Shown in pieces: positions 394 through 20,607 of a stretch of DNA of 21,588 bases; positions within the stretch are counted from its first letter, which is position 1; each line of letters begins with the position of its first letter. Source of the DNA: a virus (taxonomy: Duplodnaviria; Heunggongvirae; Uroviricota; Caudoviricetes); IMG/VR virus record IMGVR_UViG_2563366997_000002, one strand, 5' to 3'. The translations under genes and the position numbers were made by a program. The notes beneath the pieces are model-generated. The model did no database searches. It saw only the letters and a list, made by a program, of their open reading frames with translations, and was not told the DNA's origin.

Positions 394-402
394 CCCGGAA
401 TG

Positions 403-3079: not shown

Positions 3080-3156
3080 ACCAAACTGTTTTCAAAGCTG
3101 AATGAATTGATTAAGCCAAACGTAACATATCAGGAAAAGTAGTGAAATCTTTGCCT

Positions 3157-3369
3157 TCAAGTCGCCGGGAGGTACTTGTAGATTGTTTTCACGTCCACGC
3201 CTGTCACATCAGCCACCTGCTGCCGGGTAGCGCCGTTCTCCAGCATTCTGCGGCACCGCTCCACCACTTCTTCAGTCATTATCCGGCGGCGGCCGCCGAC
3301 TCTCTCCTGCTCCATCGCTGCGGACCGACTCGGATGCATTCGGCAAATTCTAGGCCGTGATTTTTCCAA
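3157..3369 (-). pseudogene. serine DNA-invertase (Hin/Gin/Pin/Cin family) C-terminal HTH remnant
   Basis: C-terminal 45 aa, GGRRRIMTEEVVERCRRMLENGATRQQVADVTGVDVKTIYKYLPA, aligns by eye with the Hin C-terminal DNA-binding domain. The N-terminal about 140-aa catalytic domain is absent and the 5' end overlaps the upstream 266-aa gene. Confidence 0.6.
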
Positions 3370-4150
3370 TCCTCTCCATCAGATATGCCAGGATGACATC
3401 CAGTGTGCTGGTCCCATATGCATATTTGCCGGGGAAAACCAAACATTCTGACAAAACGGATGTTAACGGAGACACTGAACCATTGCCTGCTCCGCCAATA
3501 CTCATTTTTTGAGACGGGCTATACGCTGGGATTGTATAGCCCGTCACTTGTCGGCTGGTCACTGCAGACTGATCTGACCGCTGGTATGCAATTGCATAGG
3601 ATCCAGCAGCCTTGTTAGAGCACATAACTACAGCGCAGAATAAAGATTGCCCTATATTGTTAGGAGTAAATGCCAGATCGGCCTCGATCCCTCCATTCAG
3701 AAAAATCGGGAATGAACCTGCTGACGTTGTACGAATGCCGACGCCATGAGGTGTGCTTTCCTGGGTTGCGATAACCGCTCTGTCCTGTGGCGTAGCCGGA
3801 AGCGCCCCACCTGGCAGCTGATAGATGAATGCAAAAGTATTGATGTTTGCGTCCATAACCACCGCCGTATCACCAGCCATGCCGGATGCACCGGAGAAAT
3901 TAAGCCCCTGCAAAACAGAACCATTCAGCTTTGTGGATGGCTCGAGGGTCTCCAGTGACTTGAAAAGTCCGCCATCTAATCGGTTAGAGATAGCTACTAC
4001 TTTTGCACCAGACCCCATTTTTAGAAACTCTGTCTTCACTGGTGTCCATACTGATGGGGATAGTTCTGAGATCGCTTTCTCTGCCGCTGTTTGTGAGTAC
4101 ACAGGGAGTAAGGGGTTATTCAGTCCAGTTAGTGTGTAAATCAGTCTCAT
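3350..4150 (-). CDS. hypothetical protein (266 aa), probably tail-associated
   Basis: Starts 7 nt after the esterase-domain gene stop with a GAGGAT SD; Gly/Ser/Thr/Ala-rich composition. No family recognised. Confidence 0.5.
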   Translation of the reverse strand: MRLIYTLTGLNNPLLPVYSQTAAEKAISELSPSVWTPVKTEFLKMGSGAKVVAISNRLDGGLFKSLETLEPSTKLNGSVLQGLNFSGASGMAGDTAVVMDANINTFAFIYQLPGGALPATPQDRAVIATQESTPHGVGIRTTSAGSFPIFLNGGIEADLAFTPNNIGQSLFCAVVMCSNKAAGSYAIAYQRSDQSAVTSRQVTGYTIPAYSPSQKMSIGGAGNGSVSPLTSVLSECLVFPGKYAYGTSTLDVILAYLMERIGKITA

Positions 4151-4159
4151 TTTTTATCC

Positions 4160-6223
4160 TCAGAAAACGTTAATACGAAAAGCGGGGAGCCAGTCGTAAA
4201 GAGTCACGGATGTGTCATACACCCATATGATTCCAGCGGAAGATCGAACACACCCTCTTGCACCAAGAGTCCGCCCGGAAGGTTTTACAGATGCGCCGCT
4301 CTGAAGTGGGTTTTCTGCTGTCGCATAGGAAACGCGCCCAAAACGTCCAGAGGGGGCGGTCGCCAGGTTAATCAGCACGCCCTTGCCGTCCGAGCTGATC
4401 GCGATGCTCGATATAGCAGGTGGAGCACCAGTCTCATCCGTGTAGCTAAAGCCGTAATTGGCCAGACCGGAGGTGTTGATCGTAGTCGTGTCCAGCACCA
4501 GGTTCGTATACGCTGGGACATTGATTTGTATCTGCGTGGGTGAGTTCCACACGAAACTGGTCGGAACCATCCCTGACCAGCCGCTCGTAAACCACTCCTG
4601 GAGAAGCGCTCTCGCCACAGCTGCTCCGCGCCGGTTCTGGCCCGCACACGTCAAGTGCAGACCGTCTGAAATAAAATCGTACTGGTACAAACTATTGACC
4701 AGCCTGAATTGCTCTTTTCCGTGCAATCGCGTCGACGCCAGTCGCGCGTACTGGCCTGTAAATGCACCATGCCCGTCATTGACATACCCCAGCTGGGTAA
4801 TGGCGATAATCGGCGGTTCGTTTTGACCCGTTCTTGCGATGATGTCGCTGGTGATTTGTCTCTGGTACTGCCTCATCCGTGATTCATACATTCCTTCTCG
4901 TAATCCTGACCAGTCCTCGTCGGACTCTCCCTGCATCCAGTCAACGCAGAGAACAATCGGCAGCCAGCCGCGTGCTTTACAGGCCGTTACGCAGTCTTCG
5001 ATTGAATCGAGCAGATACTGATATACCTGGTTACCCCGTTTCTGGTACTCGTAAGCCTGACCAGACTGCGCACATACGATTGATAGCGTGCGCGGCATGA
5101 TTCCGGTAGCTGCAGCCATATCGCGAATGAAGGTGTTCGCGAGGCCGCTTGCGGCCGTTTCTTTATCTGTCCCACTTACTGCCTCAACCAGTGGCACCAG
5201 AGTAGTGCTGCGTGTCCCTGTACGCCTAACCCCGCCGCTGAGCATGAAAGCGTTATCAGGATATATCGGCGTTGCTGCGACAATGGTTTGATCGGCGTCA
5301 GGACAATATCCTCGAGCGTTGGATTGCCCAGCAGTCACAAAGATAAAACATACAGGCACTGTCTCTGAGTAGGGGTACACAGTAGACCCTGACAAATGAA
5401 GTCCATACTCAGGGAGCTGGTTGGCATCATCGTCGCCACCACCACCGCCATTTCCGTTATTAACAGCTACCAGGCCACCGTCTGAGTAAATCCAGTGCTT
5501 CCCACCAACCGTATAAGCTTCAACGATCTGGTTTGTGGTTGAATCAACCGTCATCCGCCACACTTTTTCACCGCCAATAAACTGCGGTATAGAACCCTCC
5601 CGGCCCAGCGCATAGAGTTCGGATTCTTGTTGGGTTAAAAGTTCGTAATATTTTCCGTCAGGACCGATTTGAATTAATCTGCCGCTTGTATTTAAAAATG
5701 GAGCCACGCGGGAAGTCTCCGGATCATATGCTGCCAGGGTCACGCTGTCTGGCGATACCTGGTATGCGTAGTCGTCACGAACCATCCGCCGTCCGGTTGG
5801 CTGCAGCGTTCCAGCGAGGTTGATATACTCATCGGCCAGAGAGCTTCCGTCCTGACTGCGGACATAGGTTGTTGAACCTGCCGGAATATTCGCAATATCC
5901 GCCTGCGCCGCCGCCAGCGTCATGTACTGCCGGCTGAGAGGGATCAGGTTTTGGCGGGCTTCATCAATAACAGCGTCGGTAGCAGCTGCCATTTTTTTAG
6001 TAGCCCCAATTATCGTATCCTGGGCGTTACCAAAACGATCTATAAAAGTATCGCTTTCGCTGTTCAGGAAATCATCGTACGCCAGGGCGTTATCATTCAG
6101 ATCCTTCATGCTATTTGAAGGTCTTGGATTGCCGGTATTATATCTTTTGTCCATACCTGTTCCTGTCTTCATCTTTTCAATGAAGCAATTAAGATTGACG
6201 CCCCGCCCCTTCAGGGCTAACAT
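4160..6223 (-). CDS. tail-region protein with SGNH/SASA-type esterase domain (putative receptor-modifying tailspike or fibre)
   Basis: Up to 687 aa. Central domain has an SGNH-hydrolase nucleophile block VTAGQSNARGY and a distal DGLH block, as in sialate-O-acetylesterase-like proteins; a fibre-like N-terminal region and a C-terminal beta-rich region flank it. The true start is probably an internal Met (6172, 6154 or 6109), because 6218..6223 overlaps the -10 element of a divergent promoter. Confidence 0.7.
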   Translation of the reverse strand: MLALKGRGVNLNCFIEKMKTGTGMDKRYNTGNPRPSNSMKDLNDNALAYDDFLNSESDTFIDRFGNAQDTIIGATKKMAAATDAVIDEARQNLIPLSRQYMTLAAAQADIANIPAGSTTYVRSQDGSSLADEYINLAGTLQPTGRRMVRDDYAYQVSPDSVTLAAYDPETSRVAPFLNTSGRLIQIGPDGKYYELLTQQESELYALGREGSIPQFIGGEKVWRMTVDSTTNQIVEAYTVGGKHWIYSDGGLVAVNNGNGGGGGDDDANQLPEYGLHLSGSTVYPYSETVPVCFIFVTAGQSNARGYCPDADQTIVAATPIYPDNAFMLSGGVRRTGTRSTTLVPLVEAVSGTDKETAASGLANTFIRDMAAATGIMPRTLSIVCAQSGQAYEYQKRGNQVYQYLLDSIEDCVTACKARGWLPIVLCVDWMQGESDEDWSGLREGMYESRMRQYQRQITSDIIARTGQNEPPIIAITQLGYVNDGHGAFTGQYARLASTRLHGKEQFRLVNSLYQYDFISDGLHLTCAGQNRRGAAVARALLQEWFTSGWSGMVPTSFVWNSPTQIQINVPAYTNLVLDTTTINTSGLANYGFSYTDETGAPPAISSIAISSDGKGVLINLATAPSGRFGRVSYATAENPLQSGASVKPSGRTLGARGCVRSSAGIIWVYDTSVTLYDWLPAFRINVF
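6195..6223 (+). promoter_or_regulatory. putative sigma70 promoter for the HTH/acyltransferase cassette
   Basis: TTGACG, 17-bp spacer, TAACAT, located 9-33 bp upstream of the first plus-strand starts. Confidence 0.4.
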
Positions 6224-6231
6224 CGCCTTAC

Positions 6232-6519
6232 GTGTTTAAACGGTTAAATAAGAGAATGATTTTAATAAATAAATACACCCCTCCAACGCAGGAAGATTTA
6301 GCCAGACTGAAATCCGCACTAAATTACTCCGGAAACCAAATGGCAGGGCTCGCAGGTGTAGCCAGCGATAGCCAATGGCGGAAATACACTGGCGGAGAGA
6401 GCCCCAGGGTAATGTCAAGACACATACTGTTTTATATTGCAGCTCAGCTTGTTCTGTCTGATGAGCAACTTAACAATGTAATAAATAAAATGCGCGATAT
6501 TGGCGCGGAGATAAAATAA
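6232..6519 (+). CDS. small XRE-like HTH protein (putative regulator), coupled to the acyltransferase
   Basis: 95 aa from a GTG start (87 aa from ATG at 6256). The segment LNYSGNQMAGLAGVASDSQWRKYTGGE resembles a Cro/C1-type helix-turn-helix. Its stop overlaps the acyltransferase start (ATAATG). AT-rich. Confidence 0.5.
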   Translation: MFKRLNKRMILINKYTPPTQEDLARLKSALNYSGNQMAGLAGVASDSQWRKYTGGESPRVMSRHILFYIAAQLVLSDEQLNNVINKMRDIGAEIK

Positions 6520-7610
6520 TGCTTGGCCTAATAAGGTTTTTTTTGGCATCGTGCGTCATTGCTTTTCACTTAACGGCTCGCATACCTGCACTTGGCAACT
6601 TTGCAGTGAATTGCTTCTATGTTATTAGTGGTTTTTTAATAACATACATTTTGCATGAAACATACAAGTTCAACTTCTCTATGTTTTGGAAAAATAGAAT
6701 ACTGAGGTTATTCCCGGCATATATATTTTTTCTCGTCATGGGCTTTCTTATTATAAAATTAATTCCATCCGCAAAGGAATTCCACTCAAACTGGACAGGC
6801 AATTTCTTACCTGGAGATTTATTAGGAAACCTCTTAATCTTCCCCTGGGCTTTCCTTTCTGATAATGCTGTAGCAAATCCATTCGGTGCCTTTTCATCCA
6901 TTTATCACTTTGCTATTGATGGTAATAGATTCAGAATAGTCACATCATCATGGTCAGTGGGTGTTGAGATAACATGTTATTTTTTATTGTGGCTTTTCAT
7001 AGCCCGAAATAAATTTACAGCCATTACGTCGATTCTGCTTTCACTGCTTTATCATGCTTACGTATATGTAGTACACCATTCTTTTGATATGGCGTATTTC
7101 CCATTCCTTGCTGCAACACTTCCTTTTAGCATGGGTTCTCTGGGTTATTTTGCCCATAGAAAGTTCAAAGCTATGTATCTTTCTCCACACAAAGCTTTTT
7201 TAATAACATTTATTTGCATCGGGATTTTTATTACCAATTGGCATTTATATACAATTAATCCATTAGGTCAGTACAACATAATACTTTACTACACCAATAA
7301 TGTAATAGCATTGTTTACAACCCTGGTATTATTAAAAATAAAGACAAACATACATCTTGAGAAAATACTCAAGTGGTTTGGTGACCTGGCCTATCCAATT
7401 TTTCTTTGTCAATATTTTGGTGGATTTCTAGCATGGCTTGCTATTGGTGGTGAAAATCGTGGCTTATCCATCTTTTTATTAGGCTACCCAATATCAATTG
7501 CACTTGGGATCGTTTGTGTAATATTAATAGACAAGCCACTAATTAAAATTAGAGCAAAAATAAGGGCGGACGCTCAAAGCAAAAATAATCAGGAAAACTC
7601 TTCAAGGTAA
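6519..7610 (+). CDS. acyltransferase family 3 (OafA/Oac-like) integral membrane O-acyltransferase
   Basis: 363 aa, strongly hydrophobic with multiple predicted TM segments. N-terminal region FHLTARIPALGNFAVNCFYVISGFLITY is typical of AT3 acyltransferases. Markedly AT-rich relative to flanks; opposite strand to the structural genes. Confidence 0.8.
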   Translation: MLGLIRFFLASCVIAFHLTARIPALGNFAVNCFYVISGFLITYILHETYKFNFSMFWKNRILRLFPAYIFFLVMGFLIIKLIPSAKEFHSNWTGNFLPGDLLGNLLIFPWAFLSDNAVANPFGAFSSIYHFAIDGNRFRIVTSSWSVGVEITCYFLLWLFIARNKFTAITSILLSLLYHAYVYVVHHSFDMAYFPFLAATLPFSMGSLGYFAHRKFKAMYLSPHKAFLITFICIGIFITNWHLYTINPLGQYNIILYYTNNVIALFTTLVLLKIKTNIHLEKILKWFGDLAYPIFLCQYFGGFLAWLAIGGENRGLSIFLLGYPISIALGIVCVILIDKPLIKIRAKIRADAQSKNNQENSSR

Positions 7611-8374
7611 ACTAAACCATTCGCTCCTTTTCCTGATGAATAGTTACCATTCCCCCCGGCACCACCTGAGCCGGGGAAACCGCCATCATCGCCAGAACTA
7701 CCGAAGTGGCCATTGCCACCCGTTGATGAAAATGCAGATCCTCCAGCCCCGCCAATAAAAGCATCAGAACCATAATACAGACCACCTTGAGATATTCCGC
7801 CAGTAATATTTAAAATGTTCCCGCCACTTCCGATACCTCCAGCAGGAACTGTAGCCCCGCCACCACTCCCTCCAGTAGCTGAGATTAAACTCCCGAACCT
7901 TGTATCACCACCATTCCCGCCTTTAGACGAGACACCAGCAGCAACAGCACTGCCACCAGTACCTATCGTCACAGATATAGTTTCGTTATCAGAAATATTA
8001 AATAACCCTTCCGAAAATCCACCAGCACAACCTCCAGATGCGCCCACACTAACTGGAGCATTCTGGCCACCTCCCCCCGCTCCCCAAACTTTCACCCGCA
8101 CTCTTTTCGTCCCTTTAGTTGGAGTGTAAGTCCCTGACTTAGTAAAGGTGACAATATTAAGCAGGCGACCGCCACCAATCGCTTTAAGAACCTGTGAATC
8201 ATCATCAGGATCAAGCTCAAGCCCCGCGCCCTCAACAACGTTTACCAGCTCACGCTGAAAGGTATTCATCATCTCAGCATTAATTATTGTCGGTGAAATA
8301 CCATTAGCGACATTACCATTAGTGTATTCACCATTAGCATCAGCGGTGTCAGTTGTACTGCCAACTTTTCTCAT
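7589..8374 (-). CDS. glycine-rich tail fibre protein
   Basis: 261 aa. N-terminus (NAEMMNTFQRELVNVVEGAGLELDPDDDSQVLKAI) resembles the conserved tail-fibre attachment domain, followed by GGxGG-rich repeats. Directly downstream of the baseplate genes. Confidence 0.65.
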   Translation of the reverse strand: MRKVGSTTDTADANGEYTNGNVANGISPTIINAEMMNTFQRELVNVVEGAGLELDPDDDSQVLKAIGGGRLLNIVTFTKSGTYTPTKGTKRVRVKVWGAGGGGQNAPVSVGASGGCAGGFSEGLFNISDNETISVTIGTGGSAVAAGVSSKGGNGGDTRFGSLISATGGSGGGATVPAGGIGSGGNILNITGGISQGGLYYGSDAFIGGAGGSAFSSTGGNGHFGSSGDDGGFPGSGGAGGNGNYSSGKGANGLVYLEEFS

Positions 8375-8400
8375 ATAAACCTTCTTTTTAAATGTCTGAA

Positions 8401-9075
8401 TTAAACGTAACCGGAAGCGATATCAAATATTTTGGCAAACTCAGGCGTGACTTCGTAAACCCCCTCATCGTTAAAACCGAAATAGATATAGCCGAATTTG
8501 ACCAGGGTGTATGAGGGGGCGAGGGCATTAATCCGGCATTCAAGCTGACGATTACCCCAGGAACGTAATGGATCGCCACAATAACTCAGACCTGCACGGG
8601 CATAAGTTATCGTTGTGTCTTCCGCCTCTACCAGCCAGACAAATGGCCAGTCATCCCCATTTAGCCCGTCACCACATACCGATAAGCCAGCACGCGCCTG
8701 CCGGTATTCCTTAATCGAAATCGTATAACCCATTGCTGCGGCAATACTGATGAAATAGCTCTTTGACTGCCCGCCGGTACTGATGAGTTTCGATACAATG
8801 TCAGACTGACGCTTCGCAATCGTATCCACTTCGCCAATCGAGCAATCATCAGGTAAGCCGAGTGTTTTTTCCCACTCGGTGAGCATAATCGTCGCAGTTT
8901 TTGGAAAGGCACCGCGCAGCAATGCAAGTGCGTCGTTATCACTTCGCTGGAAACTGGCCGCAATGGCCCGCAGTACAGCGGCCTGAACAGCTTTTGGATC
9001 CCGTGTCCACGCTCGGCCGGTGGGGATAAGCGCCTGCAGTGCCTTCTGATAATCGTCTGTTGAGAAAAGGCTCAT
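8401..9075 (-). CDS. Mu gp48-like / P2 gpI-like baseplate protein (DUF2313-type)
   Basis: 224 aa; start overlaps the upstream J-like gene stop (ATGA-type coupling); size and position match the baseplate wedge partner. Confidence 0.65.
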   Translation of the reverse strand: MSLFSTDDYQKALQALIPTGRAWTRDPKAVQAAVLRAIAASFQRSDNDALALLRGAFPKTATIMLTEWEKTLGLPDDCSIGEVDTIAKRQSDIVSKLISTGGQSKSYFISIAAAMGYTISIKEYRQARAGLSVCGDGLNGDDWPFVWLVEAEDTTITYARAGLSYCGDPLRSWGNRQLECRINALAPSYTLVKFGYIYFGFNDEGVYEVTPEFAKIFDIASGYV

Positions 9076-10220
9076 GTGTAGTTCACCTCACCACGAACAG
9101 CCAGCTCCCCAACTCCCGGCTCAATATTCGCAGAAGGCGACACAAGGATATAACCTGAAGTACCGGCAACATCCCCTATCGCACGGTTGAGATCTGAAAG
9201 GTAAATTTTCCCTGTGCCGAGCGGGTTAGCGGATTCAAACAATACCCCGTCAATCGCATCAGCAATGGCCGCAGTCGTTGCGCTGTCGGCATCAGATATC
9301 CCGCCTATTTCAAAATCGATAACGCGTTCGATGGGAGAGCAGACATAGTTAAGGGAAGTAACCGGCGCAAGCGGATACATATAATCGGCAACTCTCCCCT
9401 GATCCCCGGTGGCTTTTACAGCCCCCCACTCTTCCAGTTGAGAGACACCGTCAGTTCCTACAGGGAATCCATGATTGGTTTTATCATCGCCGTCGCACAT
9501 GATGTAAATCACCACGGTACCCGGCCCCATCCCCCGGCGCCGTATCCATGCCCTGGTAATCCCCGACACGGATAAAGCCCAGCTTTTATAATCAGTGTCA
9601 CTCCCGCCCTGCGGGGGATTCTGATACGCCAGCAGACCACGTAATCGGAAATCCTCTTCACTTTCAATGTTGGCGCCGCCGGTGGCGGGCTCAATCAGCG
9701 TAACCGAGCTGTCTATGCCGGGGGCATTAGCATCCAGTGTAAGAATGGTGCCAGCATCGGCATTTCCGGAAGCGCCTCCTCCTGTCACATCGTCTGTGAT
9801 ATCCGGCAAAACCGCTGTTACAGCAACCGACGCACTGCCAGCAGTGTTTATCGTTATGGCATCATCGGTTGTGTACTGGTAACCATCATCACGGTTTAAC
9901 ACCGCCCCTTTTGACAGTGTTTTCCCCGGCGTTCCGGTAACGGTCGCCGCCGGAGAGCGTGCTGCCGTTGCGGCTTTTCGGTAAATCTGCTTTAGCGCCA
10001 TCCATCCGGCAAGCCACTCATCGGTAGAGGTGAAAGGCGTGCTCTGACGGGCAATATAATCCAGGTAGGCGTAGTGCAGATGGGCCATGCCCGCATCCAT
10101 ATCAGCGAGCACCTTAAGGTTGCCAAACCGTAACAGCGCGCCAACACTTTCAAGCTCTGCCTGCATAAACTGGCGATTCTCCTGCCGGAGCTCGCTCAGT
10201 GTTTTCCGCTTAAATGGCAT
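9072..10220 (-). CDS. baseplate J-like protein (Mu gp47 / P2 gpJ family)
   Basis: 382 aa; size and position after the gp46-like gene; translationally coupled to both neighbours. Confidence 0.75.
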   Translation of the reverse strand: MPFKRKTLSELRQENRQFMQAELESVGALLRFGNLKVLADMDAGMAHLHYAYLDYIARQSTPFTSTDEWLAGWMALKQIYRKAATAARSPAATVTGTPGKTLSKGAVLNRDDGYQYTTDDAITINTAGSASVAVTAVLPDITDDVTGGGASGNADAGTILTLDANAPGIDSSVTLIEPATGGANIESEEDFRLRGLLAYQNPPQGGSDTDYKSWALSVSGITRAWIRRRGMGPGTVVIYIMCDGDDKTNHGFPVGTDGVSQLEEWGAVKATGDQGRVADYMYPLAPVTSLNYVCSPIERVIDFEIGGISDADSATTAAIADAIDGVLFESANPLGTGKIYLSDLNRAIGDVAGTSGYILVSPSANIEPGVGELAVRGEVNYT

Positions 10221-10659
10221 TATTCAGTTGCTCCCATAGCCAGAAGAATTTGAACTCCTGCCAGTCCCCCGCCGGCGGCAAATACCGGATGATGAGGTTC
10301 AGCCTATTCGGGAAAACAATCTCTGACTGAGCCTCTATCGCTGCTGCAATACCATCCGACTTCATCCAGGCCAGAGCCTCTTCGGCATAATCTTCAGCTC
10401 TCATCGCCACTTCGCGCGTCAGTTTTTCACGCCGCAGTAGCCACAGCCTTGAGCCAATATTCCGGTCGTTGTCCAGATCCCCCCACCAGCCGCGGCGGTC
10501 AGTTCCTTCATAATCATCATCAGCGCGCGCCAGTCCGTCAGTAAACAAACTGATAATTATGGCCGTGTGCATATCATTCTCAGATGTCAGTACGCCGTTA
10601 CCGGTTTGCCAGTCAGCATGAATGGCATCCACATCCCAGAATGAGGAAATATCACTCAT
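10210..10659 (-). CDS. Mu gp46-like baseplate protein (GP46 family)
   Basis: 149 aa, acidic, between spike and J-like genes; overlapping start and stop with neighbours. Confidence 0.65.
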   Translation of the reverse strand: MSDISSFWDVDAIHADWQTGNGVLTSENDMHTAIIISLFTDGLARADDDYEGTDRRGWWGDLDNDRNIGSRLWLLRREKLTREVAMRAEDYAEEALAWMKSDGIAAAIEAQSEIVFPNRLNLIIRYLPPAGDWQEFKFFWLWEQLNNAI

Positions 10660-12702: not shown

Positions 12703-13135
12703 GGTGCCAGCCAGTTGCTGGCTGCTTTCGGAACGCTGGTAAAGGTGCCTGGGCGCTGTCTTTCAGGAAGATGGCCAGCGGACGTAGTGCTGTTTTCAGT
12801 TCCGGCGCAGTCCAGGAATCGTCAAAAATAATATGATTCTGGTTGAACTCGCCCATCAGGTACAGGCCGCCGGACTGATCGCCATGGGTGGAAGCGTCAA
12901 CATCATCAACCAGAATGGCCGCTGGCGTCTCGCTACCATCCGTTGCGGTTTTCACACTGGCTGTATATTTGCCACTGGCGGTGATCATGCCAAGCACAGT
13001 GCCACGCTTATACACACCGCCGGTGATCGTGCCGGTGTCAGTGACCAGTTGCAGCGTACCGGCAATTAACTGATCCGGCACAAACACTGAACTCTTCATG
13101 CCAGGTGCAAAGGCATTCTGACCAAATTGATCCAT
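12626..13135 (-). CDS. head decoration protein (lambda gpD-like) with aberrant 3' extension
   Basis: First about 125 aa fit the head-decoration pattern (...AAILVDDVD...GLYLMGEFN...LKTALRPLAIFLK). The last about 40 aa (PLPAFRKQPATGWHHEHADRSAMYRSHDGCCCRLQPNQS) look like out-of-frame read-through. Start overlaps the scaffold-like gene stop (TAATG). Confidence 0.6.
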   Translation of the reverse strand: MDQFGQNAFAPGMKSSVFVPDQLIAGTLQLVTDTGTITGGVYKRGTVLGMITASGKYTASVKTATDGSETPAAILVDDVDASTHGDQSGGLYLMGEFNQNHIIFDDSWTAPELKTALRPLAIFLKDSAQAPLPAFRKQPATGWHHEHADRSAMYRSHDGCCCRLQPNQS

Positions 13136-13725
13136 TATTTCTCTCCTTTAATGGAGTTGTAGAGGCCGGTCATCTGGTTTACCAGTGCCGATTTACCGTT
13201 CTCTTTCTTGCCGCCATCCGGATTCAGACGGACATCATGGCTTTCCTGCATGCGCTGATCGAGAGAGCGCCCGCGCGTTGCCTTTGGTTGCAAGGCTGGC
13301 GCCGTGGATGCCAGAACATCGATAGCGGCGGTAGAGCTCATCCCGGTATTGAATGCGAGTGAAGCGGCCAGTGACGGATTCGCCGCAGCGTGCTTACTGC
13401 CGAAGATACGGGCGCAACGTTTACGCTCGGCGGCGCGGGCATTTTTCACCGCTTTGCTTTCTTTGCGGTCATCGTCGCCGTCATCTTCGGAATCGTCATC
13501 GTCTTCAGCCGCATCCAGGTCGTCACCGTCATCTTCAGCGTCATCATCACGATCGTCGTTTTCCGCGTCATCTTCGCGTTCATCGTCCCCGGCATCATCT
13601 TCGCGCTCATCCTCTTCCGCGCGACGGCCTTTCGCTTTTTTGGCCTTTTTGTCCTCTTCCTCTTCGGAAGCAGTCGCGCCACGGCCAATAAGATGAGCAA
13701 AACTAAAAGTCTTTTTCTTCGCCAT
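13135..13725 (-). CDS. acidic scaffold-like head protein (Nu3 position)
   Basis: 196 aa from ATG at 13725, one nt after the protease stop; extremely D/E-rich central tract. Position between protease and decoration protein. Confidence 0.55.
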   Translation of the reverse strand: MAKKKTFSFAHLIGRGATASEEEEDKKAKKAKGRRAEEDEREDDAGDDEREDDAENDDRDDDAEDDGDDLDAAEDDDDSEDDGDDDRKESKAVKNARAAERKRCARIFGSKHAAANPSLAASLAFNTGMSSTAAIDVLASTAPALQPKATRGRSLDQRMQESHDVRLNPDGGKKENGKSALVNQMTGLYNSIKGEK

Positions 13726-13726
13726 T

Positions 13727-14593
13727 TCAGGCTCCTGTTTTTTCAAGTAAGTTTCTGAACGCAGCATCAGGAGGACACACCTCATCAGCCAGTCCAAGTT
13801 CCACACCATCAGCAGCCATAAAACAGGCAGCCTGAGTACTTTTGATAACCTTTGCGCTAATCCCCCGATTTCTGGCGACGGTATTCACAAACAATTCGCC
13901 CATGGTGTTGATGTCCTGCTGAATAGCCGCCAGCGCTTCATCTGACAGCTCTCTCAGCGGTGCCCCCTCAGCCTTACGGGAACCGTAGGTGATGATGGTG
14001 ACTTTGAGGCCGTCATCTTTTATCCGCTGGGTCCAGTCAAGGTGCATAGTGATCACACCAACTGAACCCACACCACCGGTTCGGGGAACAGAAATCCGGT
14101 CCGCCGCACTGGCAATCGCATAGGCGGCGGAATAGGCGCTTTCCGTCAGAATGGCATGGATGGGCTTTTTCCCGCGGGCGCCATAAATGACATCGACCAG
14201 ATCGAAACATCCGGCGACCTCGCCTCCTGGCGAATCAATATCCAGGCAGATCCCTGTAATATCGGGGTCTTCCATCGCAGTCAGGAAGGCCTGACGAATG
14301 CCGTCATAGCCTGTCATGCCACTGTATGGGCGCAGGCTACCCAGCTTCTGCACCAGGGTCCCACATATCGGGATGACAGCGACGCCCAACACATTGTCAT
14401 AACCCGGGTCGCTACGGGATTCCCGCCCCCTGTTATCGTCGTATCCATACCAGTCATCATCCATGGCAAGAGAGGATTCGATTTTACTGATGCCAAACCG
14501 GTCCATAACGGATGCCATGATGACTTCAGCTTTACTTGGGTGCAGCGCCAGCGGTGTATTAAAAAGGCGCTGGGCCAGATGAGGTAGATTCAC
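13727..14593 (-). CDS. head maturation protease (S49/ClpP-like, lambda gpC family)
   Basis: 288 aa; recognised by eye as the S49/ClpP-like prohead protease family by overall sequence pattern, size and position after the portal; start overlaps the portal stop. Confidence 0.85.
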   Translation of the reverse strand: MNLPHLAQRLFNTPLALHPSKAEVIMASVMDRFGISKIESSLAMDDDWYGYDDNRGRESRSDPGYDNVLGVAVIPICGTLVQKLGSLRPYSGMTGYDGIRQAFLTAMEDPDITGICLDIDSPGGEVAGCFDLVDVIYGARGKKPIHAILTESAYSAAYAIASAADRISVPRTGGVGSVGVITMHLDWTQRIKDDGLKVTIITYGSRKAEGAPLRELSDEALAAIQQDINTMGELFVNTVARNRGISAKVIKSTQAACFMAADGVELGLADEVCPPDAAFRNLLEKTGA

Positions 14594-16224
14594 TTTTCCT
14601 CCGGATCGGTAATTGTCTGGCTGGCGAACTGGTCCGCCTGCGCCCAGCTAGGTAATGGAAGTCCGCGCTTCAGGCAGGACTCAATTTCCCGCTGGCGCTG
14701 ATCAAGTATCTCTTCCCAGTCCTCACCCACGTTTTCACCCACTTCAATTTCGAGAGTGGAAAGGCCGGCATCGAGGCCGAGAATGGCGCCTTTTTTCTCT
14801 GCCACCGGATCAACCCATCCTCGCCCCGGCCCCATCCAGCGCGCACGGGAATACGCTGCCCGGGCATCAACAAAATCAGGGGCATCATTAGGTAGAGGTA
14901 AATCCTCGTTATCGTGAACTTCCTCCACAAAGGCCGTCAGAAGCGGCTGAGCGGTACCCATGGAGAAATCATCACGTCGGCGGGTGAGCGTTTTCCATGC
15001 CTCCAGCAAGGAAGATCGCGCAGAGCTGTAATTCACATCAGACCAGTCCTGTGTAACCTGCTGAGGAGATAACCCCGTACCGGATGAGAAATTACGCAAT
15101 ACTGCAGACTCGAAAACCTCAAAGTTGCTGTAAGGGCGGGCAGCGTTGACCGTTGTTATTCTCTCCCCTGGATAAAGGATCGGCATACGGGCGCCATTCT
15201 GCAGCGTCAAACGGCGATCATTATGAAACTCTGCACGACCATCCTGGTATGCTCCCAATCCCTCTTCGAAGTTTTCCCCCAGCGCGGACTGGATCATTTC
15301 GGGATCGTATGGAGACTCAATATACGCGGCGAAGATAGCATTCAGAATTGCTGCTTCCAGCTCGCTCTGGTCGTACTTCACCAGCATCTTCAGACGTTGC
15401 ACTACTGGAGTCAGAATGCCATTCCCCCGATGCTGAGCTCCACGCTCATGGTCAAAGTCGTGCACAACGTGCGGGCGCCCCCATGCGGTTTCGCGCGGGA
15501 TTCGTCGCCATGTCATTGTTTTGGCGCCACTCCACCAGTCACCGATATGTGCTTCACGTATGTGATAAGCCACAGGTGCGCCGTCAGCATCAATTTCAAC
15601 GCCGCCGCGGATATTCGGCATATCAAAATTCTGCTGCGGGTTACTGAGTCTGTCGGGATCAACAACCTGCACCGTCGTGGCATAACGCCCCTTACCTGGT
15701 CCAAGGCGATCGGTGCGATACTGAAGCACCATCAGGGCATCGCCATCAATCAGCTTGTGGCGAAAGGCCAGACGCAACATTTGTGGAACGGTTAGCTTGC
15801 GCTCAACGTCACAATAACGGCCTGTGTCGTATGCCCAGGTTCTCCAGTGGGAAGCGAGTGCTTTTCCGTACTCTTCCGCCCATACTGCGTCAAAACTTTT
15901 ATTACCTGTCATCATCCGTAATACACGATAGTCAGGCTTCATGATCGGACGGAAATTGGCGCCGACCGCATTATCAAGCAGGCGAGTTATGGCACCATTG
16001 GCCCATCCATCATTTCGGACCAGATCCCGCGCACGGGAAACTATACGGTCACGGTAGATATTAATTTCGTTATCCGGTGACCATAGTGCGGGCTGCCAGT
16101 TCGCCAGTTGATCGCTGAAGGAATCCCCGGCGTCATATGGCACCCGGCTACCGCCCGTCAACATGCTGGGTTTTGGTGCCTGATAAGGTCTCCCGTCAGG
16201 ACCAAGGATTTGCACTTTATTCAT
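14590..16224 (-). CDS. portal protein (lambda gpB family)
   Basis: 544 aa; size and position between gpW-like and protease genes. Confidence 0.9.
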   Translation of the reverse strand: MNKVQILGPDGRPYQAPKPSMLTGGSRVPYDAGDSFSDQLANWQPALWSPDNEINIYRDRIVSRARDLVRNDGWANGAITRLLDNAVGANFRPIMKPDYRVLRMMTGNKSFDAVWAEEYGKALASHWRTWAYDTGRYCDVERKLTVPQMLRLAFRHKLIDGDALMVLQYRTDRLGPGKGRYATTVQVVDPDRLSNPQQNFDMPNIRGGVEIDADGAPVAYHIREAHIGDWWSGAKTMTWRRIPRETAWGRPHVVHDFDHERGAQHRGNGILTPVVQRLKMLVKYDQSELEAAILNAIFAAYIESPYDPEMIQSALGENFEEGLGAYQDGRAEFHNDRRLTLQNGARMPILYPGERITTVNAARPYSNFEVFESAVLRNFSSGTGLSPQQVTQDWSDVNYSSARSSLLEAWKTLTRRRDDFSMGTAQPLLTAFVEEVHDNEDLPLPNDAPDFVDARAAYSRARWMGPGRGWVDPVAEKKGAILGLDAGLSTLEIEVGENVGEDWEEILDQRQREIESCLKRGLPLPSWAQADQFASQTITDPEEK

Positions 16225-16487
16225 CAGAATCTGAACCTCACTGGCTTCCGTGGCCGGGCGACAATTCCCAGTTGCGCCTGCAGCAACTGAATCAGCGCCA
16301 GCAGGTCGGCGAGAGAGCTTTGCTGATAGGAGACAGAGCGCGTCCCATCACCCTGCGTATAGGAGAATGAGACGCCACGGCTGCCGGTAGTCAGGTCGAT
16401 ATAAGCCTGCTGCGCTTTCTGCAGAGCGTCTCTGAGCTGCTCATCAGTCATCCCACCAGCAAGTAAGCTCGTGTTTCGGTTAAACAT
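16224..16487 (-). CDS. head-tail joining protein (lambda gpW-like)
   Basis: 87 aa (75 aa from the internal Met); small protein between terminase large subunit and portal, as in lambda. Confidence 0.7.
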   Translation of the reverse strand: MFNRNTSLLAGGMTDEQLRDALQKAQQAYIDLTTGSRGVSFSYTQGDGTRSVSYQQSSLADLLALIQLLQAQLGIVARPRKPVRFRF

Positions 16488-16495
16488 GGTTTTCC

Positions 16496-18628
16496 TTATT
16501 GCGGCAGGAGTTTAGAAATGTTCTTACGCTTAACAGGAGCCATAGCCTCATCCACGATGGCACCCGGTAATTCGTAATTGATTTTTTCTTCTGGCTCGGC
16601 TGGCGCCGGCAGGAACTTATCGGGATCGGCCTGAAGGTTAGCGGCCCGAACATTGAGTTTTAATCCCATATGTTTCAGCCCACACAACGCGGCATAGCTG
16701 TAAACGAGGCAGTCGAGTGCTTCGTTCGCCCGTCCGGGGATAGGCTCCCAGACACTGAATCGCTGACCGGCCACCACTTTATAAACCAGTCGCTCGGCCA
16801 GCAGCTGGTTGAAATAGCCGAGGTCACGATCATCCGGGAAGTGCATATAGCCCGCACCGGCAGTACCTAAAGCTGGCGGTTCAAGATGCAGACGACCACG
16901 GACAACATCTTTCGCAGAGTTCACGCCAAGTATAATTGGCCTGAAGCTGGCTTTACTTTTTGATGTCGGTCGCTTGGTTGGCCAGACGGGGTTGCGTTTC
17001 CCACCCTGCGCAGATTCGCCCTTGATAGCCCAGACGCGGCGCCCAAGGCGATCTTTGCAGAACTCATAAACCTTTTGCGTGTGGTGACCGCCGGAGTCCA
17101 TACATGCAGCCAGAATATTCAGCCCTCGCCCGTCGCCGCGTCGCCATATCTGTTTCAGGTACGCATCGAGGCGCTTCCAGGGTTCCTCAGTCTCCAGATC
17201 GCCATAAATGACGTCATGCGCAACTGACCACGATTCCTCGTCCCGCCCCCAGCCAGTGATCGTGATTTCGAATCGGTCATCCTGAGTATCGACGCCCGCA
17301 GTTAACAATGCCACGCCATCAGGAACGACGGCCGGGAAGACTTCACGGCGCGCCAGCAGGACATCAACCGGGAGCTGTTTCCCGTGGTTAGGCCGGTGCG
17401 GCAACCCCATCTGGGTGTTCCACCAGGCCTGTTCCTTATCCGGATCCCCTTTCGCATCGAGGTATTTCTTTGCAATGTCCGATGGCTTGTCTTTTTGCCA
17501 GGGACTGAAGAGTTTTGACGCCTGGTACCCGGCGTGGTGATTATCCAGCGCCTCGGCCCCGCAGTCCGGGCAAATCGCCCGGTATACGGCATGCCGTTCC
17601 GACTCTGACCAGCGCCAGACGGCATCAACACTGCCCTCGTCTCCTTCATGCCATTTCTGGTCGTATTCCATTAATGGTGAATGGCGGGAACCACAACATT
17701 CAAACGGTTTGGTCTGATGCCAGCGGATTGTCTGTAATGCCCGCAGACGCTCACCCTCTGACCAGCCAGCACCACAACATTCACAATGGATCATGGCCGC
17801 TTTGGTCAGGTGCTTATCACCTTCTTTTGGCCATTGAACATGTTTGAAGAAATCAAGGAACTGTCGGTGCCCGCAATGGGGGCAAACTACAGAGGCCCGC
17901 CGCTGATCTGAATCTTCGTAACTGTCAGCAATCCGGCTTTCATCTTCGATCGTCGGCGAACAAGCCCGCACGGACAGCCAGTTAAGGCCAAATGTGGCGG
18001 TTCGCTCTTCCGCCAGAGCGATGGGATCGCCCTCACGGGTAATCGGATATTTATCCACCTCATCTGCCAGCAGAACACGGATCGGACGGCGCGCAAGGTT
18101 ATCTGGACTACCGGCGCCGGCCAGCGCCAGAAATCCGCCGGTGAAAGCTTTATACAGAATGGTTTCTTTTGAACTCTTCTGCTTTGAGTCACCTATGATG
18201 TTACGCAGAACTGGCGTTACCCTAACCAGCGGGCTGATGCGTTCTTTGGAAAACTGCTCAGCGGCCTCTTCCTTCGGCTGCAGGAGCAAAATCGGACATG
18301 GGTCGAGGTGCGCAAAATAACCAAACAGGTTTTCCAGCAGCGCGGTTTTCATTAACTGGGTACAGCACATCACGGTGATAATGTGGACGCCCGATTCCGT
18401 CGCGGCCAGCATAGGACCGCGGGCAATTTCAACCGTTGATGTTTCCCAGTTCCCGGAGGTACTGCCAGCTTCTTTCGCCAGCTTCCGGTAGTCATCGGCC
18501 CATTGCGGGACGCTGATCCGCGGCGGCGGTGTCCACCCTTTCCGGACACTCAGTTGAAGACGCTCAATCTTCCGCTGGGTTAAACTCTGGTTCTCCGAGG
18601 ACTGAGATATGTTTGTGGACATGTTCAA
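16496..18628 (-). CDS. terminase large subunit (lambda gpA family)
   Basis: 710 aa; contains the VDTQDDRFEITITGWGRDEESW segment I recognise from gpA-type terminases; 5' end overlaps the small-subunit gene as in lambda. Confidence 0.9.
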   Translation of the reverse strand: MNMSTNISQSSENQSLTQRKIERLQLSVRKGWTPPPRISVPQWADDYRKLAKEAGSTSGNWETSTVEIARGPMLAATESGVHIITVMCCTQLMKTALLENLFGYFAHLDPCPILLLQPKEEAAEQFSKERISPLVRVTPVLRNIIGDSKQKSSKETILYKAFTGGFLALAGAGSPDNLARRPIRVLLADEVDKYPITREGDPIALAEERTATFGLNWLSVRACSPTIEDESRIADSYEDSDQRRASVVCPHCGHRQFLDFFKHVQWPKEGDKHLTKAAMIHCECCGAGWSEGERLRALQTIRWHQTKPFECCGSRHSPLMEYDQKWHEGDEGSVDAVWRWSESERHAVYRAICPDCGAEALDNHHAGYQASKLFSPWQKDKPSDIAKKYLDAKGDPDKEQAWWNTQMGLPHRPNHGKQLPVDVLLARREVFPAVVPDGVALLTAGVDTQDDRFEITITGWGRDEESWSVAHDVIYGDLETEEPWKRLDAYLKQIWRRGDGRGLNILAACMDSGGHHTQKVYEFCKDRLGRRVWAIKGESAQGGKRNPVWPTKRPTSKSKASFRPIILGVNSAKDVVRGRLHLEPPALGTAGAGYMHFPDDRDLGYFNQLLAERLVYKVVAGQRFSVWEPIPGRANEALDCLVYSYAALCGLKHMGLKLNVRAANLQADPDKFLPAPAEPEEKINYELPGAIVDEAMAPVKRKNISKLLPQ

Positions 18629-19127
18629 TCAGCACCTCTGTCATCCTGTCCGCCGGCACATTCAGATCGGCGGCTATCAGCGGTGCCACGCGTGAAGGCC
18701 AGTTCAGCCAGGCATCACGCTGCTGGCGAAAGGCGTTAAACAGAACCTCCTCGGCGATGGCCAATTCAATTGTCTGGCCGCTGTCTTTTTCATACTGGAG
18801 CTTTGCCTGCAGGGCCATGTAATTTTCACGGATCCGCGCGGCCTCTTCCCTGGAAAGGACTGCACCTTCTGTAAGCATTATCTGGCGAACGGTTTCATCA
18901 ATTTCATCGTCGCCATCATTCCGGGGTGCTGGGGCTTTTTTCTTCTTCGCGTTTGATGCCCGCGGATCTTTTCCATCACGGTTTTTCTTCAGCGCGGCAT
19001 CGCTCGCCTCAACATCAATCAGGTCGCCATCCATGACGATAAACCGACCAGCCTTGATCCATCGGCCAATAGTCTTGCGATCGACGCCTGAATGTTGCGC
19101 GTACTGACTCTGGTTCATCGTGGTCAT
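18564..19127 (-). CDS. terminase small subunit (lambda Nu1-like)
   Basis: 187 aa; N-terminal HTH-like segment (DRKTIGRWIKAGRFIV) like Nu1; immediately downstream of a repeat-rich putative cos region. Confidence 0.8.
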   Translation of the reverse strand: MTTMNQSQYAQHSGVDRKTIGRWIKAGRFIVMDGDLIDVEASDAALKKNRDGKDPRASNAKKKKAPAPRNDGDDEIDETVRQIMLTEGAVLSREEAARIRENYMALQAKLQYEKDSGQTIELAIAEEVLFNAFRQQRDAWLNWPSRVAPLIAADLNVPADRMTEVLIEHVHKHISVLGEPEFNPAED

Positions 19128-19273: not shown

Positions 19274-19374
19274 CAAAATAAAAGTTTGTAGCTAGGAAAA
19301 CACTGCGGCGCGCAATGCCCGTGCCTTACAAAAGTCTCAGGAAGGACCCAAACCCTATGGGGTAGGTATTCAGG

Positions 19375-19899
19375 TCATTTTGCCGTTCGAATCGCTTCCT
19401 CAATCGCCCTACTCAGCGCGCCGGGCATTAAGCCGGCTGCCATTGACCGTGAGCGGTTCATGTAGTCAAGCGTAGGCGTAACAGGTAGAGCATCACCAAA
19501 CCTCACCAGCAGCTTAGGAGCACGCTGTTTCCGCTTTGGTCTGCGCGTACCATTCGCTGAGCGCCGGGCTCGTTTCTTTTTCGCCTTCTTCGGTTTACGC
19601 CTCTGCCAGACAGCATCAACACCATTGACCTCACCTACGAACACATTCGGCTTCGCTTTCAACTGCGACAGCTTATTTCGCGGCATGTTGCCGTATTTGT
19701 TCAGTTTGATGTTCTTTGGATTGAGCAGCGCCTGGCTGTTCAGTTTATGTTCACCACCAAATTCAAAGGGTTCGAGATATTCAGCGGCGACATCGCGCAC
19801 AAAGACTTTTGCGCGGAGGTTGTTCTTTCTGGCGCCAGCAGAGCCCACTGAGTTGACGGTGAACGGCGTCGGCGATTCCAGTTTTCGCCCCAGTGCCAC
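19375..19899 (-). CDS. hypothetical highly basic protein (174 aa)
   Basis: Long ORF between the integrase remnant and the cos-like region, same strand as the late operon; Lys/Arg-rich tract RRKPKKAKKKRARRSANGTRRPKRKQRAPK; no Cys. No family recognised; could be spurious. Confidence 0.35.
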   Translation of the reverse strand: MALGRKLESPTPFTVNSVGSAGARKNNLRAKVFVRDVAAEYLEPFEFGGEHKLNSQALLNPKNIKLNKYGNMPRNKLSQLKAKPNVFVGEVNGVDAVWQRRKPKKAKKKRARRSANGTRRPKRKQRAPKLLVRFGDALPVTPTLDYMNRSRSMAAGLMPGALSRAIEEAIRTAK

Positions 19900-20495
19900 C
19901 TTTTGCGCTGCGGCGATATCAGCGTGGTTATGTACCAGGTAATCCGTGTGTTGGTGTCGATAAGTTTCCTAAACCCCAGCGCGACCGCTACATAACTGAT
20001 GAAGAGTACATAGCTATCTTCACTCATGCGACACCTGCAGTTAAAGCCGCGATGGAAATTGCGTATCTTTGCGCTGCAAGGGTATCTGATGTTCTTAAAA
20101 TGAACTGGAATCAGATTCTTGATAAAGGAATTTTCATACAGCAAGGTAAAACTGGTATTAAACAGATCAAAGCCTGGACTGAGCGTCTTAGTGCGGCTGT
20201 GGATATTTGCAGGGAATGGGGACAGGATGGCCCTGTTATCAGGACAATGTATGGTGAGCGTTATTCATACAAGGGATTTAATGAAGCATGGAGAAAAGCG
20301 AGAAACGCGGCTTCTGAAGAACTTGGTAGGCCACTTGATTGCACCTTCCATGATCTAAAGGCTAAAGGGATCTCAGACTATGAAGGATCTGGCAGGGATA
20401 AGCAAAAATTCAGTGGTCATAAGACAGAATCACAGGTACTTGTTTACGACAGGAAAGTTAAAATCAGCCCAACGTTGAACAAGAAAATGAGATGA
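19893..20495 (+). pseudogene. tyrosine integrase, catalytic C-terminal domain only (5'-truncated)
   Basis: 200-aa ORF with an integrase catalytic-domain pattern (HDLKAKGISD ... SGHKTESQVLVYDR with the nucleophile Tyr). The frame is closed by a stop at 19860..19862 and no upstream frame encodes an integrase N-terminal domain. Ends 112 bp from the tRNA 3' end. Confidence 0.8.
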
Positions 20496-20607
20496 TTCTT
20501 TGGCGTCGGAGCATGCTTCGGCGCTAGAATTTTTCTCAGTGGATTTTCTCAATTTTTCTCATCGGGATGCAGGTCACTGAAAGGGAATGCTGTAAGTGTT
20601 TGAATAG

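Follow-up and report, generated by a model that had tools for sequence, protein, structure and literature searches.

Temperate contractile-tailed phages of the SfV, ST64B and phiP27 type are lambdoid and carry a Mu-type baseplate, with head modules that are HK97-type, not of the lambda gpA/W/B/C/D/E type; in SfV, O-antigen-modifying morons are found near the tail-fibre end. The cryptic prophages of E. coli K-12 (e14, Rac, DLP12, Qin and CP4-57) are deletion-riddled remnants that occupy their original att sites and display truncated integrases or IS insertions. The locus described here is most closely related, among described phages, to Citrobacter phage phiNP (OR565852) and Serratia phage vB_SspM_BZS1 (BZS1). 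phiNP is a viable contractile-tailed temperate phage of C. rodentium and integrates at ssrA, in contrast with the serU site used by the element under study (PMC6456863).

The window, i.e. the whole 21,588-nt stretch of DNA that was analysed, is 100% identical to the genome of E. coli HS, and the prophage it contains lies at the 3' end of serU in a host locus flanked by yodB and mtfA. Features are collected in Table 1. Bases 20593-20669 recur at attL with 94.9% identity (blastn), in a pseudo-tRNA located ~200-330 bp to the left of the window start, and a single pair of att sites was identified. The left end had been placed at position 3157 by the initial annotation and has to be moved, as the element runs leftward past this point and through window position 1 to reach the attL pseudo-tRNA outside. 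A literature search on HS, serU and prophages returned nothing specific.

Table 1. Features of the prophage element, in window coordinates.
Feature	Position	Strand	Basis
Left-arm accessory genes: UmuD-like ORF (1-372), frameshifted 'DNA polymerase V' fragment (329-561)	1..561	-	phrog_3469 E 6.9e-49; RefSeq HS
IS4, 1426 bp (transposase 1504-2832)	1420..2845	+	Pfam Nterm_IS4 + DDE_Tnp_1
Hin/Gin-type DNA invertase remnant, C-terminal HTH	3157..3321	-	phrog_125 E 2.6e-11; RefSeq 'missing N-terminus'
Distal tail-fibre module	3350..6223	-	phrog_4201 tail fibre E 1.3e-66; Pfam SASA E 1.8e-11
266-aa ORF, no assigned function	3350-4150	-	
687-aa fibre/spike with SASA (sialate O-acetylesterase-type) domain	4160-6223	-	
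Acyl_transf_3 O-acetyltransferase moron	6519..7610	+	PF01757 E 2e-15; phrog_3333
Mu-type baseplate + proximal fibre block	7589..12319	-	Pfam; colinear with phiNP, 53-82% aa identity
Gly-rich fibre (fibre261)	7589-8374	-	
gp48	8401-9075	-	PF10076
J/gp47	9072-10220	-	PF04865
gp46	10210-10659	-	PF07409
gp45 spike	10656-11237	-	PF06890
gp44/gpP hub, 361 aa	11234-12319	-	PF21683/PF22255/PF21929; PDB 1WRU
DNA-circularisation (Mu gp43-like) 3' remnant, 141/466 codons	12319..12741	-	tblastn, phrog_184/phrog_17109
Internal deletion junction	12740..12741	.	blastn vs intact relative; junction alignment; TA microhomology
Lambda-type packaging/head block	12626..19127	-	Pfam, PHROGs; lengths identical to Ec1117
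gpD decoration	12626-13135	-	HDPD, PF02924
Scaffold-like protein	13135-13725	-	
S49 protease (gpC)	13727-14593	-	PF01343
Lambda-family portal (gpB)	14590-16224	-	PF05136
gpW	16224-16487	-	PF02831
terL	16496-18622/18628	-	GpA_ATPase PF05876 E 5.6e-66; GpA_nuclease PF20454 E 3.4e-81
terS	18564-19127	-	phrog_57, E 1.7e-34
N-terminally truncated ORF, residues 32-212 of 212-aa protein	19375..19920	-	tblastn; phrog_1924 E 6e-45; RefSeq 'missing N-terminus'
Early-region deletion junction	19917..19920	.	blastn vs MIN9; junction alignment; TATC microhomology
Tyrosine integrase 3' fragment, ~192 codons	19917..20495	+	Pfam Phage_integrase
attR + tRNA-Ser(CGA) (serU)	20593..20697	-	serU 20608-20697 by ARAGORN

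The order of every retained structural gene is identical in the window, phiNP and BZS1, comprising a hypothetical gene, terS, terL, gpW, portal, S49 protease, scaffold and D, followed by DNA-circ, hub, gp45-gp48 and fibre. All 15 retained structural genes match phiNP in the same order, with amino-acid identities of 33-90% (portal 83%, protease 85%, hub 82%, TerL 46% and terS 33%). phiNP and BZS1 were recovered by protein-level searches and are the best matches of TerL and hub among 50,697 phage records, where nucleotide searches produced peripheral matches only (integrase, fibre tip and invertase region) and did not reveal any closely related cultured phage. phiNP differs from the window element by keeping the full capsid-to-tape-measure block and the lysis and early genes, and by displaying dissimilar fibre tips and morons. 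The SfV/ST64B/phiP27-type phages are far more distant in sequence, their hubs being 31-33% identical, and the K-12 cryptic prophages derive from a different phage lineage; compared with the latter, the window remnant is far more recent (its carriers diverge by 0.03%), with no demonstrated host benefit. The element thus appears to belong to the phiNP/BZS1-like lineage of temperate myoviruses, an already known phage type.

Closer relatives are E. coli prophages. Ec1117 (NZ_CP126602, near yecD) is 98.9% identical at the nucleotide level over 13 kb, including both flanks of the internal junction, while MIN9 (NZ_CP069682) is a near-complete homologue (87-92% identity) that occupies the same attachment site in the yodB-serU locus, with a full integrase (99.2%) beside serU and a lambdoid early region. 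Unlike the window element, these relatives keep the 7.8-kb and ~14.5-kb segments described below. Ec1117 also differs in its integration site and its SGNH/GDSL fibre tip, and in MIN9 the gp46, lysozyme and rusA genes are already interrupted by internal stops. The intact arrangement, in which the two junction halves lie apart in one prophage, is observed in ~18 E. coli genomes. The initial annotation had described a chimera of lambda-like head and Mu-like baseplate genes; this view is contradicted by phiNP, BZS1 and the intact E. coli prophages, where a lambda-type head followed by a Mu-type contractile tail is the native, colinear layout.

Within the head block, gpW, portal, S49 protease and gpD match their Pfam families above gathering score and are colinear in lambda order, and the large terminase is of the gpA type, with both ATPase and endonuclease domains present. 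The whole inventory proposed from the letters of the sequence (terS, terL, gpW, portal, protease, scaffold and decoration) was recovered on the minus strand by Pfam and PHROGs, and the operon retains tight gene overlaps. gpD is damaged, displaying residues 1-132 of its 135 native residues followed by 37 out-of-frame residues. The predicted baseplate cluster (hub, spike, gp46, J, gp48 and fibre) is likewise complete, Mu-type and on the minus strand, including gp44, gp45, gp46, gp47 and gp48, and its ORFs are all full length, with the lengths of their Ec1117 counterparts and no internal stops. The 361-aa protein matches PDB 1WRU (Mu gp44; E 4e-42, residues 9-347) as well as 3CDD. A capsid identity for this protein, considered in the initial annotation, was checked and ruled out by the three Mu GpP-type Pfam domains together with the full-length 1WRU/3CDD match, and the protein is the baseplate hub.

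Relative to Ec1117, 7,812 bp are missing at 12740/12741, where a 2-bp (TA) microhomology is present. The loss covers the terminal 12 nt of gpD, the gene for the gpE-type major capsid, connectors (one of them FII-like), DUF2635, the genes for sheath, tube, chaperone and tape measure, and 325 DNA-circ codons. In Ec1117 this segment encodes Phage_cap_E (the gpE-type capsid, PF03864; E 4e-61), Phage_attach, sheath, tube, TAC, tape measure and DNA_circ_N, as identified by Pfam. Searches of the window by tblastn with the proteins of the intact relative revealed no gpE-type major capsid, and no sheath, tube, chaperone, tape measure or complete DNA-circ (all present in Ec1117, MIN9 and phiNP) other than the last 141 DNA-circ codons. 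These correspond to residues 326-466 of Ec1117 DNA-circ, with a 100% match, and the 128-aa ORF at 12316-12702 is this remnant. The earlier statement that head genes run straight into the baseplate is thus correct as to the missing capsid-to-tape-measure genes but not as to the contact itself, since the 3' third of DNA-circ sits between gpD and hub. The head-to-baseplate junction is, from these alignments, a single 7.8-kb internal deletion inside one phage genome.

The early region was compared with MIN9, from which the window differs by a deletion of ~14.5 kb with a 4-bp TATC microhomology. Rha, the lysis genes, the Q region, replication genes, cro/cI, ParB, ea22, xis and the integrase N-terminus are lost. 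On one side of the junction lies the truncated phrog_1924 gene, which is positioned upstream of terS in intact relatives; on the other, the integrase ORF (19893-20495) lacks ~138 N-terminal codons, in agreement with the truncation noted initially. In nucleotides, the integrase fragment is 99.2% identical to full-length MIN9 int over the 3' part of the latter, and 99.6% identical to the int of Klebsiella phage KpF5. Proteins of the intact relative were searched against the whole window by tblastn (E<=1e-3), with queries that also included capsid, connector, sheath, tube, chaperone and tape-measure proteins; no match to lysis, Q, O, P, cI, cro or cII was found, and three truncated remnants were the sole hits. 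The missing capsid, sheath, tube, tape-measure, lysis, repressor and replication genes are therefore as first reported. Genes of an inducible prophage are wanting, the integrase being incomplete and homologues of xis, cI/cro, O/P, Q and lysis genes absent, and a crude consensus scan identified no sigma-70-like promoter between terS and serU. The initial view of a defective prophage at tRNA-Ser(CGA), unable to form particles as capsid, sheath, tube and tape measure are absent, is thus upheld by the truncated integrase, the missing virion and early genes and the att repeat at serU.

In the 687-aa fibre ORF, relatives share the N-terminal ~145 codons only (~120 from the RefSeq start; window 5790-6223), the homology breakpoint with Ec1117 falls at window position 5790, and fibre C-termini vary among relatives. 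No intact prophage was found that carries exactly the SASA esterase-type fibre module, and the direct ancestor is thus deduced from close relatives (98.9% and ~90% identity). The invertase remnant lacks its catalytic N-terminus and is 92.6% identical in nucleotides to the Hin recombinase region of Klebsiella/Escherichia phages. An invertible fibre segment, hinted at by this remnant, was rejected, as the inverted repeats are just 16-26 nt long, imperfect and consistent with chance. IS4 splits a 141-aa ORF and is flanked by an 11-bp target duplication (1409-1419 = 2846-2856); its insertion is secondary to the prophage, the HS records used in the alignment lack IS4, and in a set of 5,426 complete genomes of E. 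coli none is occupied at this site.

Six of 5,426 genome records contain the internal deletion junction (12740/12741), and they come from two strains, HS and Res13. Between these strains, 6 SNPs were counted in 18.7 kb of the element and 4 in ~6.8 kb of flank. The element SNPs comprise 5 nonsynonymous and 1 synonymous changes, as against 25 nonsynonymous and 49 synonymous differences between HS and Ec1117 (pN/pS 0.16), a shift that gives a Fisher p of 0.026, or 0.058 without the 266-aa ORF, the 5:1 count being small. Sister remnants in 127, PCN061 and NRZ96606 lie at the same locus and share the left 6.8 kb at 100% identity, but have a deletion that spans the whole stretch from fibre gene to rusA and includes all head and baseplate genes. 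The terminase, portal and baseplate ORFs do look intact, as initially described: none of the 13 structural ORFs retained at full length is interrupted by a stop or frameshift, and their lengths equal those of intact relatives (terS lay outside this comparison). At 0.03% divergence, however, the element would be expected to contain ~0.3 nonsense mutations (estimated as 6 SNPs x ~5% stop-creating), so intact ORFs are uninformative on selection; they would be what neutrality predicts at such divergence between two carrier lineages.

The element is very probably an ordinary decaying phiNP-like prophage remnant, derived by two simple deletions, and the apparent fusion of lambda head and Mu baseplate would represent a recent deletion derivative of a temperate myovirus type that is already known, here carried by the commensal reference strain HS. 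Its source would be a single phiNP/BZS1-type temperate myovirus, in which a lambdoid early region was combined with a terminase/portal/protease/D/E head of lambda type and a contractile tail of Mu type, and whose tyrosine integrase inserted it at the serU 3' end. Once lysogeny was established, we infer, the prophage was inactivated by two deletions of the RecA-independent (microhomology) type. One, of 7.8 kb, would have extended from the last gpD codons to two-thirds into DNA-circ, removing capsid, connector, sheath, tube, chaperone and tape measure; the other, of ~14.5 kb, would have joined the gene upstream of terS to the integrase, removing lysis, late-regulation, replication, immunity and excision functions. 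The two deletions would preclude excision, replication, late-operon switch-on and head or tail assembly. The remnant was presumably then inherited vertically, probably transcriptionally silent, with its terminase, portal and baseplate ORFs drifting neutrally and looking intact because the deletions are recent.

A true chimera, formed by recombination or tandem insertion of a lambda-like siphovirus and a Mu-like myovirus prophage, would fit the assignment of head genes to lambda families and of baseplate genes to Mu families by Pfam. It would also fit the divergence of TerL from phiNP, far higher than that of hub and portal (46% against 82-83% identity), a difference that shows module exchange within the family. 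The contiguity of both flanks in ~18 E. coli prophages, phiNP and BZS1, with capsid-to-tape-measure genes between, argues against this origin, as do the ~98.9% identity of both flanks to one relative, Ec1117, the absence of transposition genes and the single att pair, and such a fusion is extremely improbable. Scarcely more credible is the selective retention suggested in the initial annotation, which would mean that terminase-portal-protease and/or baseplate genes serve the host, for instance as tailocin parts, in GTA- or satellite-like packaging or in defence against related phages. The uninterrupted structural ORFs and tight overlaps speak for it, but a tailocin depends on sheath, tube and tape measure, and a GTA or capsid-forming satellite on a major capsid protein. 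As no homologue of these essential genes was found, the readings as tailocin, cf-PICI or GTA were rejected. Moreover, gpD is damaged, the late promoter has been lost together with the Q region, the form is limited to two strains, post-deletion changes are mostly nonsynonymous, intact ORFs carry no signal at this divergence, and sister remnants have lost the same head and baseplate genes. Selective retention of the surviving genes is, on such comparisons, not supported. An action of terminase-portal-protease and baseplate genes in trans on superinfecting phiNP-like phages, by assembly poisoning as a defence or as a recombination reservoir from which incoming phages are rescued or re-assorted, or else selection of left-arm cargo (O-acetyltransferase/esterase) that maintains the entire remnant in its lineage, is together improbable, if slightly less so.

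A more tenable, though still unlikely, proposal is that selection acts on the O-acetyltransferase moron of the left arm, with or without the esterase fibre, while head and baseplate genes hitch-hike. Across 16 genomes the 4.3-kb left module shows 100% identity, every case examined being a deletion remnant of HS or 127 type, the acyltransferase is highly conserved despite swaps of the fibre C-terminus, and its low GC is typical of morons. The 16 genomes nevertheless appear closely related (of the ten that are not of HS type, the three examined share flanking protein accessions with HS), so sharing of the left module may reflect common descent, and one of the six SNPs between HS and Res13 is a nonsynonymous change (G311S) in the acyltransferase itself.

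Read as a decaying phiNP-like remnant, neither a new chimeric element nor a domesticated device, the locus is of slight importance outside annotation. It provides an example of prophage decay in which HS-type and 127-type deletion derivatives of one lysogen type coexist in close strains, their junctions being mapped to the base and displaying microhomology, and relaxed constraint being measurable afterwards. The moron (GC 0.35-0.40) is oriented opposite to the late operon and is 97-99% conserved across the family while the adjacent fibre C-termini swap; a conserved O-acetyltransferase beside swappable esterase-type fibre tips may be of interest for receptor modification.

Apart from one IS4 copy (1420-2845), the window corresponds to the yodB-serU-mtfA region of E. 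coli HS, a commensal strain, with identities of 100% over bases 1-1419 and 99.995% over bases 2846-21588. The IS4 is complete (1,426 bp), displays an 11-bp target duplication (1409-1419 = 2846-2856) and is not present in the HS reference assemblies. Since IS4 is lacking at this site in all 5,426 complete E. coli genomes searched, the window derives from an unsampled HS-like variant. The right boundary of the element, initially set at 20607/20608, was confirmed. Position 3157, proposed as the left boundary, is not the element end, as the same island extends leftward in HS, MIN9 and the 127-type strains (127, PCN061 and NRZ96606). The serU 3' end is repeated at attL, in a copy annotated as a pseudo-tRNA and located ~200-330 bp outside the window start, and the UmuD-like ORF and UmuC-like fragment next to it are a decayed SOS-mutagenesis moron.

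Pfam and PHROGs calls reproduced the gene inventory of the initial annotation, including a closely packed minus-strand operon. Its 361-aa protein matches the crystal structure of Mu gp44 (PDB code 1WRU; E 4e-42) and the MuSo2 43-kDa tail protein (PDB code 3CDD; E 3.5e-51), both over residues 9/10-347, and is therefore the baseplate hub; the same matches rule out a capsid protein. The listed gene absences also held when proteins translated from an intact relative were used as tblastn queries against the whole window, where no homologue was found of the capsid protein, three connectors, DUF2635, sheath, tube, chaperone, tape measure, lysis proteins, Q, O, P, cII, cro or cI. The matches obtained were limited to three truncated remnants, comprising gpD (residues 1-132 of 135), the DNA-circularisation protein (residues 326-466 of 466) and a 212-aa protein upstream of terS (residues 32-212). 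The integrase ORF retains its C-terminal ~192 codons alone.

Features of the prophage remnant and its surroundings (window coordinates)
Feature	Position	Strand	Remarks
UmuD-like (S24 peptidase) ORF	1-372	minus	attL-proximal prophage end
DNA polymerase V (UmuC-like) fragment	within 1-561	minus	frameshifted; attL-proximal prophage end
141-aa ORF	left of 3157		prophage left arm; split by IS4
DNA invertase C-terminal remnant, Hin/Gin-type	3157-3321	minus	HTH alone surviving; adjoins fibre genes
687-aa fibre with SASA esterase domain	4160-6223	minus	adjoins acyltransferase
Acyl_transf_3 O-acetyltransferase moron	6519-7610	plus	low GC (35-40%)
Operon, in order: terS (phrog_57); gpA-type large terminase; gpW; lambda-family portal; S49 (gpC-type) protease; scaffold-like protein; gpD; Mu gp44/gpP hub; gp45; gp46; Baseplate_J/gp47; gp48; glycine-rich fibre	19127 down to 7589	minus	Pfam, PHROGs
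128-aa ORF	12316-12702		created by first deletion; C-terminus of DNA-circularisation protein
tRNA-Ser(CGA)	20608-20697	minus	sole tRNA in window; followed by mtfA

Prophages sharing 88-99.5% identity with the retained parts were identified in ~18 further complete E. coli genomes. The intact prophage of strain Ec1117 (NZ_CP126602) is 98.9% identical to the window on both sides of 12740/12741, where it contains an additional 7,812 bp. Pfam assigned to this segment a lambda gpE-type major capsid protein (PF03864, E 4e-61), a gpFII-like head-tail attachment protein, DUF2635, tail sheath, tail tube, tail assembly chaperone and the N-terminal two-thirds of the DNA-circularisation protein. A 617-aa presumptive tape measure, whose sole Pfam match falls below the gathering score, was assigned by position and homology to the annotated tape measure of the Citrobacter temperate myovirus phiNP. 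In Ec1117 the lambdoid early and lysis region is complete as well (LexA-like repressor, cro, cII, O, P, RusA, Q, holin, lysozyme and spanins). A nearly complete homologue in strain MIN9 (NZ_CP069682) occupies the chromosomal site used in HS; its attL repeat adjoins yodB, and its integrase, which adjoins serU, is full-length and shares 99.2% identity with the HS fragment. Relative to MIN9, HS lacks ~14.5 kb between 19917 and 19920, a stretch that contains Rha, the genes for lysis and replication, the late-regulation region, cro/cI, ParB, ea22, xis and ~138 codons from the start of int.

At junction 12740/12741 the parental sequences have only TA in common, inside an imperfect TGGT(T)A, while TATC is common to both at 19917-19920. 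Short microhomology is the signature of illegitimate, microhomology-mediated deletion, and by reference to established deletion mechanisms both junctions carry it. On the same grounds, the junctions do not point to two different phages joined by site-specific or homologous recombination. Following the first deletion, gpD consists of 132 native residues plus 37 out-of-frame residues from the DNA-circularisation remnant.

The initial annotation regarded the element as a chimeric fusion of a lambda-like head and a Mu-like baseplate. A protein search of 50,697 phage records gave phiNP and Serratia phage vB_SspM_BZS1 as best matches for the large terminase and the hub alike. The gene order of phiNP is exactly the same, with a capsid-to-tape-measure block filling the gap, and 15 of 15 retained structural proteins are colinear with it (33-90% identity). 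It is temperate, spontaneously released and plaque-forming, with a contractile tail (PMC6456863). gpA terminases and gpP hubs are likewise combined in Acetobacter, Bordetella and other phages. Because phiNP is viable and colinear, with the same order, the combination of lambda-type head and Mu-type tail is a native and functional one in this lineage, and a fusion of two elements is not borne out. The element belongs to a known phage type and is an ordinary prophage remnant, inactivated recently.

The initial observation was accurate; the possible selective retention that it raised is not supported, as distribution, age, substitution pattern and alternative decay all speak against retention of the head and baseplate genes. 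The deletion junction occurs in six of 5,426 genome records, namely four HS assemblies and two O9:H10 isolates of Res13 from pigs. Between HS and Res13 there are 6 differences over 18.7 kb of the element and 4 over ~6.8 kb of chromosomal flank, and the remnant is thus vertically inherited and very young. We estimate that ~0.3 nonsense mutations are expected at this substitution count, so intact ORFs are uninformative. All six differences are coding, with one synonymous and five amino-acid changes (266-aa ORF, acyltransferase, hub, protease and portal), in contrast to 49 synonymous and 25 nonsynonymous differences between HS and the Ec1117 prophage (pN/pS 0.16; Fisher p = 0.026, or 0.058 without the 266-aa ORF). 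Numbers are small, and the contrast suggests that constraint was relaxed once the deletions had occurred.

The remnants of 127, PCN061 and NRZ96606 occupy the same yodB-serU site, and are 100% identical to HS over the left 6.8 kb and 99.94% at the right end. Their deletion, a different one, starts within the 261-aa fibre gene (window-equivalent 8244) and extends to rusA, leaving early genes and the whole integrase and removing all head and baseplate genes. The left module is found without head genes in ten genomes and with them in six records. Further IS5/IS1 insertions are present in the 127-type remnants, as is a type I restriction gene in PCN061. The MIN9 locus, otherwise complete, has internal stops in gp46 (18211-18660), lysozyme (37622-38152) and rusA (41119-41496; locus coordinates) and an IS1 fragment close to the fibre genes, which constitute a third, independent decay route of the lineage. 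No sigma-70-like promoter was detected between terS and serU and the Q-dependent late-control region is absent from the remnant; the operon is therefore probably silent.

The left-arm module, the sole part kept in both remnant kinds, is the remnant's only mildly interesting residue, but shared ancestry accounts for its persistence no less well than selection would. The module comprises the acyltransferase moron and the adjoining SASA fibre. The acyltransferase is placed convergently between fibre genes, with 22 bp of overlap at the 3' end of the 261-aa fibre gene. In relatives it is kept at 97-99% identity, while the esterase-type fibre tip is swapped for SGNH/GDSL, TolB-like or CotH-type domains. 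Acyltransferase and SASA fibre may form a receptor-modification/receptor-deacetylation pair. The invertase remnant hints that a host-range segment was once invertible; a search of 2846-8500 gave no convincing inverted crossover sites.

The integrase fragment and att region (~19906-20669) share 99.6% nucleotide identity with the integrase region of Klebsiella phage KpF5, and many accessions of early-region proteins from the MIN9-type and 127-type relatives are also annotated in Klebsiella phages. These observations suggest recent module exchange between Klebsiella and E. coli.
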